Below, piece after piece: positions 23,082 through 46,543 of a DNA stretch of 64,000 nucleotides. The position numbers and the translations under genes are program-made. Numbering within the stretch: position 1 is the first letter of the stretch; each line of letters starts with the position of its first letter. Origin of the DNA: a virus (lineage: Duplodnaviria > Caudoviricetes); the IMG/VR virus record IMGVR_UViG_3300031555_002748, positions 2,439 through 66,438 of that record; one strand, written 5' to 3'. The notes under the pieces are model-generated. The model was not told the DNA's origin. It saw nothing but the letters and a program-made list of their open reading frames with translations, and searched no databases.

Positions 23082-23157
23082 TGGAGCTTCGGAACGGAAT
23101 CGAACCATCAACCTGCTGATTACAAATCAGCTGCTCTGCCAGTTGAGCTACCGAAGC
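23082..23157 (-). tRNA. trnT: tRNA-Thr(UGU)
   Basis: Cloverleaf GCTTCGG...CTGAT TTGTAA(T) CAG...TTCGATT...CCGAAGC TCCA; CCA encoded. Confidence 0.95.
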
Positions 23158-23236
23158 ATAATATATACTATTCCTCGCCGTATATAGGGGCGTATTTCAC
23201 AAGTTCTACTCTATTTCAAGCGATATACTTTATGCC

Positions 23237-23313
23237 TGGTACCCAGTACGTGATTCGAACACGCGAATGCCACCGTGAAAGGGTGGTGAGTTAAGCCGCT
23301 TCTCCAACTGGGC
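23237..23313 (-). tRNA. trnE: tRNA-Glu(UUC)
   Basis: GCCCAGT...CCACC CTTTCAC GGTGG...TTCGAAT...ACTGGGT ACCA. Confidence 0.95.
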
Positions 23314-23430
23314 ATTTATCTGAATCAAGATATCTAAGTATCCAGATTCAGAGTAGTTATTCAACATAACCCGTACTTCACTCCAACTAGAAGTGAATCT
23401 ATAGCTTCGTAACAACAAAACCATACCTTT

Positions 23431-23505
23431 TGGCTCCTCCAGTAAGACTCGAACTTACGACAACGCGGTTAACAGCCGCGGGCTCTACCGCTGAGCTATA
23501 GAGGA
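23431..23505 (-). tRNA. trnN: tRNA-Asn(GUU)
   Basis: TCCTCTA...CGCGG CTGTTAA CCGCG...TTCGAGT...TGGAGGA GCCA. Confidence 0.95.
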
Positions 23506-23669
23506 ATATTTAACACAATACTAATTGCCTTGGGTAGAGTTAGGTCAACAAAGTCTAATACCTATGCAATTTCAGTATTAGAAAAATCCTATTAGCTCTT
23601 TGGTGGGTTACCCCTATCAATTGCCTTAGAATACATTAACCTCAATATTCTTCGTTGTATTGTGTTTGT

Positions 23670-23746
23670 TGGCGACCCATAGCGGACTTGAACCGCTGAT
23701 CTCTTGCGTGACAGGCAAGCGTGTTAACCAACTGCACCAATGGGTC
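23670..23746 (-). tRNA. trnD: tRNA-Asp(GUC)
   Basis: GACCCAT...CTTGC CTGTCAC GCAAG...TTCAAGT...ATGGGTC GCCA. Confidence 0.95.
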
Positions 23747-23917
23747 AATTTGCTACATTTTTAAGGATAGATTTGCGTCCGTGAAATCTCTGATTATACC
23801 CCGTAGCTATCGCACACTTTCTCTCAACCTCGCCCCGCAGAGTCGGCTAAACCGATGGTTATAATTATCGTCAAGAGAGCTTTGACTATATGCTTTTCAC
23901 ATAAATCAGTTCCTTTA

Positions 23918-23993
23918 TGGTGGAGAATACAGGAGTCGAACCTGCGACATTCTGCTTGCAAGGCAGACACTCTGCCAACTGAGTTAATTCCCC
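23918..23993 (-). tRNA. trnA: tRNA-Ala(UGC)
   Basis: GGGGAAT/ATTCTCC acceptor stem with G3:U70; anticodon arm TCTGC CTTGCAA GCAGA; ACCA end. Confidence 0.95.
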
Positions 23994-23996
23994 AAA

Positions 23997-24073
23997 TGGG
24001 TGCAAAGATTGGATTCGAACCAATGATTTCCGACTTATGAGGACGGCGAGATGACCAACTTCTCTACTCTGCA
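23997..24073 (-). tRNA. trnM: tRNA with CAU anticodon (Met/fMet-like, atypical)
   Basis: TGCAGAG TA GAGA..TCTC G CCGTC CTCATAA GTCGG..ATTGG TTCGAAT CCAAT CTTTGCA C CCA. Confidence 0.85.
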
Positions 24074-24347
24074 ATGTAAAAGATAAAGATTTGTAGTTAA
24101 TCGTTATCTCTGTGTTTGTTGCCATTTAATTCGGCAAGAACCTGTAAATATAAAGCAAGCGCTAAAGCATTACAGTTATCTGTATTAAAATCAAACATCA
24201 TCTTTCACTCCTTAAATTATTTTGGCTGTTTAATACATTTACACCTGCACCAATTAAGAGTAAAAACTACAATGATGGTAGTTTAATTTTGGAGGGGAAC
24301 ATCCCCTCCGTAGGTGGACCTAGGGAATTTCACCCAGCCCATTGTGT

Positions 24348-41840: not shown

Positions 41841-42929
41841 TGTAAGTTTCGAGTTTTGTCACGAATAGTACCCAATAGATGTGACAGTATAGTGGTCGAA
41901 TTCGACTAGTTTGAAATAAATGCAAACTCTTGTCTGCGACGCTTCTGTGCTAACGTTCAGTCAGCTTCGCTTCCTTCGAACTTATAGCACGAGGGGCTCT
42001 GCCCCTATAACCAAAAAGAAGAATAGTGATGGATAAACTGAATGAGCCTAAAATAGCCGTTTTAAGCCGAGTAATGGTGTGGGGGTGAGAGTTTGGACTA
42101 GGTTGGAGTGCTTCGTGGCTTCTAGGGGCAAATTTGGGGCTCAGAATTGATTTTGGGATATTTGTATAGGTATAGGTGTTATATATAGGGATGTTTTACA
42201 TATAGTTTTATAATACCCCGGGGGTACTGTACGAAAAAGCAACTTCCTAGCGTTGCGTTTGCGAAAAGCAATCATATGTAGTTGCGTTTTCAAAAATGGC
42301 ATACCAAATGAACAAAAATAATCACATATTACAGGTTTTTCCTGGGATTGGTGTTTTAAACGTGTGCAAATGAACATAAATGATCATAAGCGTGTATAAA
42401 CGAAAATGGATAGGGATTTGCTGTGGGGATGTAGGCATAAATGAACAAATGTGAACAGAAATGTGCATTTTGTTGTAAACGGTTACAGGATTGGAAAGGG
42501 TTGTGGGTTTTTCGATATTGGGTCGGATGGGAGATGGGTAGGTTTTTACTAGGGTGAGTGGTTTTCTGGTAGAGAAGTGTGGTTTTATGGGTACGGATGG
42601 GCTGTTTGTATATATTTTTATATAATGTTTATGGGGAATAGGGTGGTAAAGGGTGATAAATTTGGTAAGTTACGTGGGGTTAGATGTAAAGAAAAAATGT
42701 CATTTATAGGCGTAATTTTAAGGAAAAAATGACAAAATTATTTTTCACAGTTTTATTGTTGATTTTGCAGTCAGTGTGTAAACAAACCTCGTACCATCAA
42801 AAGTGGGTTTTCGCTAGGTTTTATCAGTTTTTAATACCCCTCCGTATCCCAGATTTTTTAGAAGTGTAGAAAATTTATATTTTTCACACTTTTTTAAGTT
42901 TTTTGCAATTTTTTATGCTTGTTTTTTTG

Positions 42930-42938: not shown

Positions 42939-43036
42939 TAATTTGCCAAAGGGAAAGCAAAATTTTTCGTTGTAGGCTTTAACCCTTTGAGTAGTAATTT
43001 AATATTTTTTATTTAGACATATAGGAGGTAAAAATT

Positions 43037-43459
43037 ATGTCAAAGAAAATTACAGGTAAACTTATTAACTCAACAAGTGGTATCAAGGTTAGCCTTGAAA
43101 TCGCAAAGGCAAAAAACAAGCAAGGTGAAGCAATTGAATTTATCCGTATAAATACGGATAAAAAGCCATCTCAAACTGTTATCAATGCAATTAAATTGCA
43201 AGGTGGCTCTTACTTTAATAAAGACCAAAGTTGGTCTTTATTTAACTCAGTTCGTAACCAAAAGTTCGTCAACAAAATGATCTTAAAAGATGCTTTTAAG
43301 ATTGAAGTCGAAGAAGAAGAAGTTAAAACTTCTAAACCTAAACAAGCCGTTAAAGGTAAAGCACAAGCAAGCAAGGCACAACCTAAATCTTCTCTTGAAA
43401 AGAGAGTAGACAAACTCGAAGATAAACTTGATAAAATCCTTGCGTTGTTAAGCAAATAA
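43037..43459 (+). CDS. Basic protein with C-terminal leucine zipper; first gene of the right arm
   Basis: 140 aa, Lys-rich, strong RBS; ends LEKRVDKLEDKLDKILALL. Confidence 0.75.
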   Translation: MSKKITGKLINSTSGIKVSLEIAKAKNKQGEAIEFIRINTDKKPSQTVINAIKLQGGSYFNKDQSWSLFNSVRNQKFVNKMILKDAFKIEVEEEEVKTSKPKQAVKGKAQASKAQPKSSLEKRVDKLEDKLDKILALLSK

Positions 43460-43473
43460 CTTAACAAAAGACA

Positions 43474-43509
43474 AGCCCCTAACCATTTCGGTTGGGGGCT
43501 TATTTTTTT
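43474..43509 (+). terminator. Intrinsic terminator
   Basis: AAGCCCCTAACC ATTTC GGTTGGGGGCTT ATTTTTTT. Confidence 0.85.
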
Positions 43510-43660
43510 GTCTTTATGAAAGCCCTAAAACTGAAAGGTTTTCGCCTATATAAAATATATAGGGCGAGAGCCTTTTTTGTATCCGTTTTGGATATAAGCC
43601 ATAAAGGGCTTTATGGTTGATTCAGCGACCATTGAAAAACTTAATAAAGGAGGTGCAGAA

Positions 43661-43852
43661 ATGCGAAAGATTTTTTGTACAAGATTTTATAACATAAAAG
43701 GCGACTGTTATAAAACCTACGAAAAACCCTATGATCCTAGATATGATCATGAAGGAACAACCTACGGAAACGGTTTCCGTCGTGTATCCTACATAAGAAC
43801 TGAAAGGGTTGAGGGCAGAAAAGTCTATACACCACAAGGAGGTCAACAATGA
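43661..43852 (+). CDS. Small hypothetical protein
   Basis: Likely start MRKIF after AAGGAGGT. Confidence 0.65.
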   Translation: MRKIFCTRFYNIKGDCYKTYEKPYDPRYDHEGTTYGNGFRRVSYIRTERVEGRKVYTPQGGQQ

Positions 43853-44016
43853 CAAAAGCAGAAGCCGTTTCATTTATGCAATTAAAGTCCGAACTTGAAC
43901 GAGAAATGGATAGATTCAAGGATACGGAAACTCGTGAAAGCATTTTGAAACAAATTAAAGCAAATGAGCCATTATTCATAAAGGCTCAAAAAGTTATCGC
44001 TCGTTACAACAAGTAA
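43849..44016 (+). CDS. 55-aa helical hypothetical protein
   Basis: RBS AAGGAGG, ATGA overlap with the upstream gene; MTKAEAVSFMQLKSELERE...VIARYNK*; below the track cutoff. Confidence 0.65.
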   Translation: MTKAEAVSFMQLKSELEREMDRFKDTETRESILKQIKANEPLFIKAQKVIARYNK

Positions 44017-44022
44017 CGGGCA

Positions 44023-44072
44023 AACCGTCTTACGGTGAAAGTCCGTAACTGATGAGCAATAGCGAAACGGTT
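44023..44072 (+). ncRNA. Hammerhead ribozyme, type III
   Basis: AACCGUC / stem I UUACGG-UGAAAGU-CCGUAA / CUGAUGA / stem II GC-AAUA-GC / GAAACGGUU. All core nucleotides are present; GUC cleavage site at 44027-44029. Confidence 0.9.
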
Positions 44073-44084
44073 CGTTGACGCACA

Positions 44085-44740
44085 ATAACATCACAAGGGT
44101 GATTGAGTGGTATTTTTTTCGTTTTGCTTTTTGCTCGTTAGCCATTAGGCTCTGATAGTGCCTTAAAACTTTCAGCGGTTTGGACAGCCGACCAGATAGG
44201 TATTTGACCGAAATGGCGAATAAATCAAGGGATACAGCACCCTTGACCATAAGTGTTTTTGCTTTATAGCAAATAGTGGAGATAAGCACCACTACCTTGT
44301 TGCAAAAAGTTGCAATAAAAGGGATAAGTTGTGGAAACAGCACCACGACCGAAAGATAATTGAACGCTTTAAGGTGTAGTCCTACGCCTTAACACCAACC
44401 GACCTCGTTATATGAAGAATATAACGGCGATCCGTAATAGTTGCTATGCACTCACTACTCTCATTTGGTAAGTGAGTTTTTCAAAATAAATGGCAACGAA
44501 TAGAGTTTAGGGGTGCAAATAGCCTAGTAATTTACAAACGAAACGGCATTTTAGTTAGACACAACGAGAGTTTGTAAATGAAAGGGAATAAGGAACAGTT
44601 TAGAGTTTGCTAAAACTTATTAAGGTGGGGATTTAGTTGGTCTACTTGACAGGGGTAGTTGGCAACCACTAATGAAACAACTTGACTTTCAATGGTCGTT
44701 CTGTAAGCAACCAGATAGCGACCACCATTACCAAAGGGCG
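44085..44740 (+). ncRNA. Large ornate structured ncRNA (ROOL/GOLLD-class candidate)
   Basis: About 650 nt without a credible ORF in an otherwise gene-dense arm; more than 12 helices found by eye; family not confirmed. Confidence 0.7.
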
Positions 44741-44779
44741 AAATAAAAATAAAAAACAAAATAGTCGGAGGACAAAATT

Positions 44780-45217
44780 ATGAAAACAATGAAACAACAA
44801 CTTATGGAACTTGCAACAAAGCATTTAGACTGTGAATTATGGGCTTGTGATGATGGCTGTAAAGTTCACATAATCAACCACAATGGAATTTGCGTCAAAT
44901 CTTATTCGTGGTATTGTACTGAAATTGAAGTCGATGATGGCGAAGATTATGGCGAATACAAAGACAGCATATACGGAATCGGCGAAGATAAAGAAGATAT
45001 ACTAATGGCTTATGCCGAAAACCACGAAAGCGTTGAACTCATTAGACCAAAACTCTATGAAGAGCATAAGCAACTCTTGTTAGATGCACTTAAAAATGCT
45101 CATAAAGCATACTGGCTTTGGAGGTCAAATTTCGTAACCCAAAGTGATATAGACTTTGAAGAATTGACCGATATTGCCGTTGCAATAGACAATTTTGTTA
45201 ATGAAAGGGAGGTGTAA
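44780..45217 (+). CDS. Acidic hypothetical protein
   Basis: 145 aa with GGAGG RBS. Confidence 0.7.
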   Translation: MKTMKQQLMELATKHLDCELWACDDGCKVHIINHNGICVKSYSWYCTEIEVDDGEDYGEYKDSIYGIGEDKEDILMAYAENHESVELIRPKLYEEHKQLLLDALKNAHKAYWLWRSNFVTQSDIDFEELTDIAVAIDNFVNEREV

Positions 45218-45218
45218 T

Positions 45219-45416
45219 ATGTTTAGACAATACGAAAACCCACACAAGTTGCAACAACAACTTGAAGAACTTGAAAGGCAATATGCCGAAAACCCAGAAG
45301 ATGCAGATTTATGCATTGAAATTGCAGCACTCAAAGACCGTATAAATTTTGCGTGGCAAGACGACGAGTATGACTGTGATTATATGCAAGAAAATTATCC
45401 AGAAGATTACGAATAA
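45219..45416 (+). CDS. Acidic hypothetical protein
   Basis: Likely start MFRQYENP. Confidence 0.65.
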   Translation: MFRQYENPHKLQQQLEELERQYAENPEDADLCIEIAALKDRINFAWQDDEYDCDYMQENYPEDYE

Positions 45417-45430
45417 AGGAGCGAATACAA

Positions 45431-46543
45431 ATGAACATCATTAAGCAAATTGAGATGAAAATCAAGCAAGAACGACTTTATCAAGAAGATTATGCCCTAG
45501 CAATGGAACGAGAGCATAAACGCCTTGACAAAGAGCGTAGAGAGCAAGAAGAACAGTTTGAAGAATTTATGGCAGACTATAAAAGAGATAGTGCCAAATT
45601 CGGGTTCTAATGCGATATTTTTGAAAGTTTACAAGGAGGTGTAAATCAATGAGCAAGGCACAACAAATTGCTGAACTTATTTTGCTTGGCTATTCACAAG
45701 AAGATGCCCAAGAAATAGTAGCAAGTAAATAATAAAAAACTGTCCTAAGCACGACAATAAAAGGCTCAAAATAAAACAAGCCAAAGGAGATAAAAAATTA
45801 TGGCGAAAAGAATTTATGACGAGTATGCAATATACTCAAAGGCAAGACCGAGCAAACAAAAGGGCAAAGAAAAAAGCAAAATGTCCTATGAACAGTACAA
45901 AGCGTACAAAGCAAAGAAAAGGGGGAAATAAATCATGGGAAGAATGAGTAATAAAGTGCTTGGATACAAGAGCAAAGACAAAGGAAACTGTAAAACAGCA
46001 ATAGAGGCATTTGATAAGATAGAGCAATGCCGTGATACGCTATTCTCAATAAGCCGCGAAAAGAAGAAGTCTTGGGGAACGGCTTGGTATGATTACACAA
46101 GACACAATATGTTCGAAATGGCAATAAAGGAAATTATCCTACAACCAGAAGACTTTGTAAAGAGTGTGGCAATAACTTGCATCAATGACATTGCACGACT
46201 TTGGAAAGAATTAAGAGAACTTGAAACGAAAGGTGGTGTAAGATAAATGCACAACATTAACGATTTCATAGGCAAATACACTGTTGTTCTTATGGACAAT
46301 GGTGCTTTTGCCGTGGACAATGAAAACGGCACATATACAATTTATGCCGACAAAAAACAGCCGAAAACAATAACGGCAACACTTGTAGATATAATATAGG
46401 AGGATATAAAAATGAACATCTACATTGACGGAAAATTAGCCACAGAGCAACAACTATTTTTGCTCGAACTTGCACTTAAAAAGCGACTTTTTAGAGCAAA
46501 CGCTTATGCTAACAAACTTGGCATTTTTTATGTAACATTTTAG
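45431..46543 (+). other. Run of short hypothetical genes (27-103 aa)
   Basis: RBS-preceded ORFs starting at 45431, 45649, 45800, 45935, 46247 and 46412. Confidence 0.55.

Follow-up and report, generated by a model that had tools for sequence, protein, structure and literature searches.

What a hammerhead ribozyme does for the phage that carries it is the question raised by the locus described here. Hammerheads have been proposed to cut long phage transcripts into gene-length mRNAs (Perreault et al. 2011, PMC3088659), a role that a 2019 review (PMC6765202) repeats in terms of pieces differing in stability or translation. In the accessible parts of both sources this role is presented as unproven, and the review adds that the purpose of bacterial and phage hammerheads needs additional work. 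At the present locus, a hammerhead motif stands directly behind a small gene, and in place of a downstream gene it is followed by a gene-free conserved element of about 590 nt, which the original prediction of the ribozyme had overlooked.

The window (i.e., the whole stretch of 64,000 nt that was analyzed) covers most of an IMG/VR virus record of 66,438 bases with an estimated completeness of 38%, and the source of the motif is an uncultured gut phage. The minus strand up to about 41 kb carries portal, terminase-like, and exonuclease genes as well as a tRNA cluster, and from about 42.5 kb onward the plus strand holds small orphan open reading frames (ORFs) in quantity. Adjoining the six-tRNA cluster (23085-24073, minus strand), positions 24294-24341 of the same strand match the DUF3800-XI RNA motif with 45.6 bits, above its gathering score.

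Around the ribozyme, searches of PHROGs assigned no family to the window ORFs 43037-43459, 43613-43852, 43849-44016, 44780-45217, 45935-46246, and 43972-44346 (minus strand), to three more small plus-strand ORFs downstream of the ribozyme, or to four ORFs adjoining the ribozyme in relatives. In IMG/VR, the 55-aa ORF just upstream has a single weak match (44% over 27 residues), and no relatives were found for the 145-aa ORF downstream or for a 140-aa ORF flanking the locus. The 124-aa minus-strand ORF 43972-44346, which overlaps the ribozyme, was rejected as a gene because no family matches it and plus-strand genes are favored by the local strand composition. A blastn search of 43000-45500 against 50,697 phage records gave no match, and no tRNA or tmRNA was found in 43900-44900. 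Among the sequencing runs listed as holding the stretch, none is recorded as RNA, and the stretch is found instead in DNA contigs of other samples.

The ribozyme had been placed in an early transcript, which was a guess from the abundant small orphan ORFs. Promoter and terminator scans gave counts close to the shuffle expectation and nothing convincing beside the ribozyme, with the exception of a strong terminator-like hairpin at 43473-43501 (plus strand; 12 pairs followed by a T run) after ORF 43037-43459. Given this hairpin, the ribozyme-bearing transcript may begin between 43501 and 43613 or come from read-through. The features needed for the argument are the following, all on the plus strand:

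43849-44016, plus: upstream 55-aa ORF with a good SD (AAGGAGG); its TAA stop (44014-44016) lies 6 nt 5' of the hammerhead
43999-44021, plus: 9-bp hairpin GCTCGTTAC/GTAACGGGC with one U.G pair and loop AACAA; it overlaps the upstream stop
44023-44072, plus: type III hammerhead ribozyme motif with complete core and three stems
44023-44028 / 44067-44072, plus: stem III, AACCGT/ACGGTT, 6 bp
44029, plus: C17; predicted cut between 44029 and 44030 (C17/U1.1), a position taken from the motif
44030-44035 / 44043-44048, plus: stem I, 6 bp, with the 7-nt loop TGAAAGT
44049-44055, plus: core CTGATGA
44056-57 / 44062-63, plus: stem II, GC/GC, 2 bp, loop AATA
44064-44066, plus: core GAA
44119-44141, plus: anti-ribozyme arm, forming a 21-bp helix with 44049-44070 that includes 4 G.U pairs
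44142-44730, plus: ORF-free element of ~590 nt, ~93% conserved in two other metagenome contigs
near 44228, 44277, and 44331 (within 44226-44351), plus: three similar small hairpins, ~50 nt apart
44450-77 and 44530-79, plus: variable hairpins
44780-45217, plus: next ORF (145 aa) with SD GGAGG, 707 nt 3' of the ribozyme

The hammerhead motif and its phage family

The core of the hammerhead class, C3-U4-G5-A6-N7-G8-A9 together with G12-A13-A14, is present as CTGATGA (44049-55) and GAA (44064-66). The A15.1-U16.1 pair is formed by A44067 and T44028, position 17 is a non-G (C44029), G10.1-C11.1 (G44056-C44063) closes stem II, and the three helices measure 6/2/6 bp in the window, with covariation of stems I and III in relatives. 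Each feature of the complete type III hammerhead was thus recovered exactly where it had been predicted, and sequence, fold, and family membership agree. Judged by its letters, the motif appears to possess every defining trait of the class, falling short only of the Rfam score threshold. Hammerhead cleavage leaves a 2',3'-cyclic phosphate and a 5'-OH end; by analogy, the products here would carry the former on 44029 and the latter on 44030. Owing to the type III permutation, nearly the whole ribozyme would remain on the downstream RNA, with its first base paired in stem I.

Could such a motif be fortuitous? A descriptor scan of both window strands matched only 44023-44072. In 400 dinucleotide-preserving shuffles of the window, 3/2/3-bp versions occurred 67 times in total and 4/2/4 versions in 7/400 shuffles, whereas the 6/2/6 arrangement was seen in 0/400. 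Nevertheless, stem II has only two pairs, which counts against a functional ribozyme, and when very many windows are scanned, some chance motifs are to be expected, for which reason relatives were sought in IMG/VR.

Rfam, too, could be read in favor of chance. At gathering scores it leaves 44023-44072 unreported, and a search with 301 nt yielded as its sole match Hammerhead_II with 13.6 bits (E 4.5), the alignment following the wrong permutation; the check originally proposed, Infernal with hammerhead models, therefore fails with the models of Rfam. The motif belongs to the same class as RF00008 (Hammerhead_3, clan CL00010) and shares its circular permutation, open at stem III, yet this model does not report it, the score remaining below the gathering threshold of 48.5 bits. 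The same holds for the relatives described below: in a scan of 20 family loci (22 family hammerheads), the best RF00008 score was 35.6 bits, with six matches at E <= 1 and 0 matches reaching 48.5. Hence, the Rfam type III model misses a phage subfamily, and annotation pipelines will miss such hammerheads.

The pattern used on IMG/VR, CTGATGAGCNNNNGCGAAAC, leaves stem I unconstrained and specifies a single stem III letter, C15.2. It gave 116 matches in 114 stretches, 79 of which have the type III architecture of the window (called when a hairpin with 5 bp or more immediately precedes the core as stem I, the cleavage site reads U-H, and stem III has 3 bp or more), and ~15 of the remaining matches resemble type I hammerheads. 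These 79 represent 47 distinct sequences, 45 of them with a 19-nt stem I hairpin, and their loop I follows the consensus U-R-N-R-A-G-U, which is absent from the search pattern. Among the 47, 100% of the stem I cells are paired and both partners change at 5/6 pairs, stem III has both-side changes in 6/8 columns with covarying inner pairs, and stem II is invariant, being fixed by the search pattern. The covariation score of 0.481 (0.115 in shuffles, matched by 0/500) is partly circular as a pairing statistic, since its rows were pre-selected by a stem-demanding descriptor. Independent evidence for a family comes from the yield of 79/116 and the conserved loop I.

A covariance model built from the 47 relatives with the window left out (R1) finds 44021-44074 over the full model length with 70.2 bits (E 2e-17), although the core share of this score is not independent because the search pattern was derived from the window. 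Elsewhere in the window the next best score is 10.9 bits, and the motif is the sole R1 match in the whole 66-kb record. Furthermore, the window shows the combination typical of the subfamily, namely a 6-bp stem I, a U-R-N-R-A-G-U loop, a GC/GC stem II, and a 4-nt loop II. Position 2 of loop I covaries with position 3 of loop II in 45/45 distinct combinations (A/G 29, G/A 9, G/U 7, the window being G/U), and their 0.94 bits is the highest value among all loop-loop column pairs. This covariation suggests a tertiary pair, albeit two lineages could give part of the signal. A tertiary contact between loops I and II is needed for fast hammerhead cleavage at cellular Mg2+.

In one genome per species from 185,579 prokaryote species, the family pattern has only 6 occurrences (Butyrivibrio, Eubacteriales, Caproicibacter, Paludibacteraceae, Prevotellaceae, and one uncultured genome). 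One R1 match each is present in five phage records of 43-216 kb, and when these are compared with the 4 kb around the motif, only the 44-45-nt ribozyme is similar, at 91-95% identity. Four of the five have a portal match with a protein identity of 28-32%, and in those four, as in the window, ribozyme and portal gene are on opposite strands and 26-32 kb apart. Ribozyme identity and shared portal distance together indicate an old feature at a constant position, whose conservation far exceeds that of the flanking DNA. That a 44-nt motif is the only similar DNA common to distant relatives, and at the same genomic position, argues against a chance motif without activity, as do the empty 6/2/6 class among the shuffles, the R1 score, and a loop I that lies outside the search pattern and still fits both the family consensus and the loop-loop rule. 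We regard chance as a very improbable explanation.

Apart from this, two IMG/VR phage contigs (L045 and L069) each contain two family hammerheads on the same strand, 600 and 326 nt apart, respectively, which corresponds to the gene-flanking arrangement described for prophages.

Placement between genes and the upstream hairpin

To place the ribozyme relative to genes, 75 family loci with distinct context were surveyed, counting upstream ORFs of at least 50 codons on the same strand. A stop codon precedes the ribozyme in 65/75 loci (median 16 nt before it; 62/65 within 60 nt), and an SD plus start follows in 68/75 (median 20.5 nt after it; 62/68 within 60 nt). On the upstream side the window fits this picture with its stop 6 nt before the ribozyme, but on the downstream side it departs from it, as SD and start are 707 nt away.

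The 9-bp hairpin that overlaps the upstream stop was found as predicted, including its single U.G pair, and it would be the 3'-end structure of the 5' cleavage product. The idea that it caps this product gained support from the relatives. In 72 distinct loci, the 40 nt just upstream of the ribozyme fold with a mean MFE of -13.9 kcal/mol (mean z -2.87), compared with -6.6 kcal/mol (mean z -0.35) for a control stretch 110-150 nt upstream, and 47/72 upstream stretches against 16/72 controls reach -10 kcal/mol or lower. The Wilcoxon P of ~4e-11 is inflated, as many of these loci are closely related. Four of the five phage relatives (G001-G004) have another 9-bp hairpin that ends right at the ribozyme, and a metagenome contig called X6 has a different 8-bp hairpin in the letters just 5' of it (read by eye from the loose end). 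Stop and SD distances and upstream hairpins thus reveal a common design: stop codon, hairpin, ribozyme, SD, next gene, with both genes in the same orientation.

By analogy, this placement would fit the cutting of long phage transcripts envisaged by Perreault et al. 2011, and an intergenic phage hammerhead is as such of an already known kind; particular to the window are the conserved gene-free element downstream and the sequence that pairs with the core. The accessible part of Perreault et al. 2011 (PMC3088659) describes phage and prophage hammerheads with the consensus core, lying intergenically in phage transcripts and proposed to cut them. Those hammerheads form clusters flanking genes, whereas both the window record and the five phage records have a single copy per genome. 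Neither the order of stop, hairpin, ribozyme, and SD nor the rule linking loop I position 2 to loop II position 3 is in the accessible part of that paper's text, and its figures or supplements may already include these sequences.

Not all relatives have the hairpin. In L117, L131, L148/L151, and the loose ends of runs X2/X4, a shared, conserved motif of ~24 nt ending in TAAACTGC (or TAAACTAC) lies directly 5' of stem III, where the hairpin would be. It holds a TATAAA-like box, so the ribozyme might start the transcript at these loci.

Synthetic hammerhead insulators such as RiboJ place a ribozyme just 5' of the SD, where it trims the upstream context and stays as the structured 5' end of the mRNA. 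The family's median of 20.5 nt between ribozyme and SD plus start is reminiscent of such insulators. On the other hand, the family is natural and has its hairpin upstream rather than downstream, and the window goes without an SD for 707 nt.

A helix competing with the ribozyme core

Also overlooked in the original prediction was a competitor of the ribozyme fold, a 21-bp helix. The partner of the anti-ribozyme arm (44049-44070) comprises the core, stem II, GAAA, and four bases of the 3' strand of stem III, and with its four G.U pairs the helix is better on plus-strand RNA. When the 3' end is at 44072, hammerhead and upstream hairpin constitute the MFE fold (-24.3 kcal/mol). For transcripts ending past 44080 the MFE fold is no longer the hammerhead, and over 43995-44150 the alternative reaches -53.6 kcal/mol versus -36.0 kcal/mol with the hammerhead enforced. 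Unless cleavage is fast, the ribozyme could therefore be silenced to a large extent at this locus. At -27.5 kcal/mol, the duplex is stronger than those with 100/100 shuffled flanks (z -6.3), and among 3,975 22-mers sampled on the plus strand just 1 other has an equally strong downstream complement. The site of that other 22-mer (41989-42200, plus strand, -28.0 kcal/mol) is in the gene-poor strand-switch region.

A similar complement is absent in 45/45 family loci tested and in the X6 relative. The helix is outside the conserved design of the family and reads, on this comparison, as a lineage-specific add-on. Further complements surround it: 44033-44042 (the stem I/loop I region) and 44168-44177 match as a 9-of-10 complement, and GCTCGTTA occurs on both sides of the ribozyme (43999-44006 with 44133-44140). 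Taken with the 21-bp helix, the downstream complements give the appearance of an inverted ribozyme copy, now decayed, on the opposite strand. A minus-strand hammerhead within this inverted copy (44119-44177) was considered and rejected, its core being degenerate when read by eye.

On balance, we lean toward a functional type III hammerhead of a phage-borne subfamily that cuts cotranscriptionally and refolds later. The ribozyme would fold during plus-strand transcription, being the lowest-energy structure once 44072 is reached, and would cut between C44029 and U44030. The mRNA of the upstream small gene would then end with the 9-bp hairpin, 8 nt, and a cyclic phosphate, and the downstream RNA would have the body of the ribozyme at its 5' end, with the first base engaged in stem I, and continue into the ~590-nt conserved, presumably structured noncoding element and then the next gene. 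After cleavage, or in competition with it, 44119-44141 would pair with the ribozyme core and dissolve stems II and III. Such refolding would free the 5' product, block re-ligation, and leave a fully paired 5' end.

As for the fate of the downstream RNA, it had been called established that 5'-OH ends resist RNase J-type decay. This conflicts with the glmS ribozyme, whose 5'-OH end is a substrate for decay by RNase J1 (Collins et al. 2007, as summarised in the accessible part of PMC3328962). There, too, self-cleavage in a bacterial mRNA leaves a downstream 5'-OH that decides the fate of the RNA; unlike glmS, the predicted 3' product of the window has its first base in stem I, followed by the 21-bp helix. 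Any protection of the downstream RNA here would thus be due to structure, namely its paired 5' end, and not to the 5'-OH, which in glmS marks the RNA for RNase J1 decay.

The helix can also be turned against cleavage. The ribozyme might be real and held mostly inactive by it, being either a regulated or partial cutter (e.g., dependent on transcription speed) or a relic nearing loss, and the helix itself may be the working feature, for example as an RNase III-type site. Typical RNase III substrates have a helix length of ~21 bp, which is the length found here. The general specificity of the enzyme is treated in PMC3328962 (accessible part). In line with such an inactive ribozyme, the alternative fold is ~17 kcal/mol more stable than the hammerhead-enforced fold, and no more than one other of the sampled 22-mers has a local complement of this strength. 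However, all core bases, all stems, and the loop-loop rule are intact, a transcript ending at 44072 has the hammerhead as its MFE fold, and transcription reaches the arm 47-69 nt beyond the end of the ribozyme, which gives a fast ribozyme time to act. We judge this alternative unlikely. Of the two readings of the helix, a lock after cleavage or a brake that limits it, we slightly favor the lock, because the arm is made 47-69 nt after ribozyme completion.

The gene-free element downstream

No credible ORF lies between the ribozyme and the SD plus start at 44780. The three similar hairpins within the element consist of a 3-5-bp stem and an 8-9-nt loop ending in AGCA, with NACC after the stem, and they could be RNA modules or protein-binding repeats.

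Two other contigs show how the element varies. X6 (9,076 nt) has the ribozyme (44023-44068) with 3 differences, then 8 other letters replacing 44069-44146, and continues with 44147-44719 at ~93% identity (33 substitutions, 4 gap positions). Beyond both ends its sequence is unrelated, and ribozyme and element are still joined. X7 (20,387 nt) matches 44142-44524 and 44582-44730; in between, a 10-bp hairpin with a 30-nt loop (44530-44579) is swapped for a 12-letter GCC-GAAA-GGC hairpin. The 30 letters available 5' of 44142 in X7 are unlike the window, so that no hammerhead is seen directly before the element there.

The plus strand of the element folds with -161.5 kcal/mol (z -3.70; 0/100 shuffles as good), compared with -137.3 kcal/mol (z -1.60; 5/100 shuffles as good) for the minus strand. 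Its most variable part, 44450-44477, has about a dozen changes plus indels, yet each of the three versions retains a hairpin of 10-11 bp there, and the pair 44330-44347 reads U.G, C-G, and U-A across them. The consensus fold of the three sequences contains no fully compensatory pair, and substitutions are not depleted at the paired positions of the window-only MFE fold (~60% paired; paired/unpaired 19/11 in X6 and 13/8 in X7). Taken together with these fold models, 44142-44730 is probably a structured plus-strand RNA.

Could the hammerhead nonetheless be an ordinary intergenic processing site, with the 590-nt stretch an unrelated DNA-level element (such as an origin or a cluster of promoters or regulators) or merely a long leader belonging to the next gene, rather than a discrete RNA matured by the ribozyme? 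The family as such is not tied to a noncoding RNA, considering that 62/68 family loci with SD and start have these at most 60 nt away. Moreover, X7 shows no adjacent hammerhead in the 30 letters before the element, the substitutions in X6 and X7 do not avoid paired positions of the window-only MFE fold, and the three similar units could bind protein as repeats. An unrelated stretch is harder to reconcile with the strand difference in folding (z -3.70 versus -1.60), with the replacement of one hairpin by another in X7, with the 10-11 pairs retained by the hypervariable hairpin, and with the three states of pair 44330-44347. It also leaves unexplained why X6 retains the junction of ribozyme and element though both flanks differ. 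We consider this explanation improbable.

Known RNA families and close homologs were sought as well. Over 44000-44800, Rfam gave nothing at gathering score and, at E <=10, only chance-level matches to STnc50 and a sobemovirus element. The models for ROOL and GOLLD, which we take to be covered by this search, gave no match to the element at gathering score or at E <=10 over the same range. An exact 20-mer had 0 matches in IMG/VR, and a loose three-loop pattern gave 120 loci, none of them related by nhmmer. BLAST against all fetched loci revealed nothing beyond chance, five bacterial genomes gave nothing significant, and 802 sampled genomes of two orders only 27-44-nt chance-level matches.

A gene-poor stretch after a family hammerhead is also seen in L131, a Butyrivibrio genome contig, at 560-1234. 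Its stem I is identical to that of the window, and TTGACGCA follows a few bases 3' of stem III, as in the window. Beyond TTGACGCA, there are only short ORFs (48 and 64 aa) and repeated AAGGCAAA-like motifs, and this stretch has no sequence similarity to the element of the window.

Returning to a hammerhead that cuts and then refolds, a more specific and clearly tentative idea is that it matures the 5' end of a structured RNA of ~590 nt from animal-gut phages, previously undescribed and similar in size to ROOL and GOLLD, with the anti-ribozyme helix as a one-way lock: the RNA would be cut and then refold, thus freeing the product and burying the new 5' end. We see this as possible but doubtful. 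The large ornate ROOL and GOLLD RNAs of phages and prophages are comparable in size (ROOL averages 581 nt; Weinberg et al. 2017, PMC5737381), phage setting, and noncoding nature. The element differs from them in that it has no Rfam match and is known in three versions only, and the accessible part of PMC5737381 describes no hammerhead association for ROOL.

In summary, this work adds the anatomy of a hammerhead family (hairpin, ribozyme, SD, and loop-loop rule), a blind spot of Rfam, and, at the locus itself, a competing helix and a conserved element. Dozens of phages share a fixed order of stop codon, stabilizing hairpin, ribozyme, and ribosome-binding site, and the family supplies a testable loop-loop contact rule. 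The window contributes one case in which the ribozyme heads a candidate conserved noncoding RNA and carries its own competing helix. If 5' maturation with a one-way lock proved true, it would give a phage hammerhead a concrete job; locus and family together make the question of hammerhead purpose measurable.
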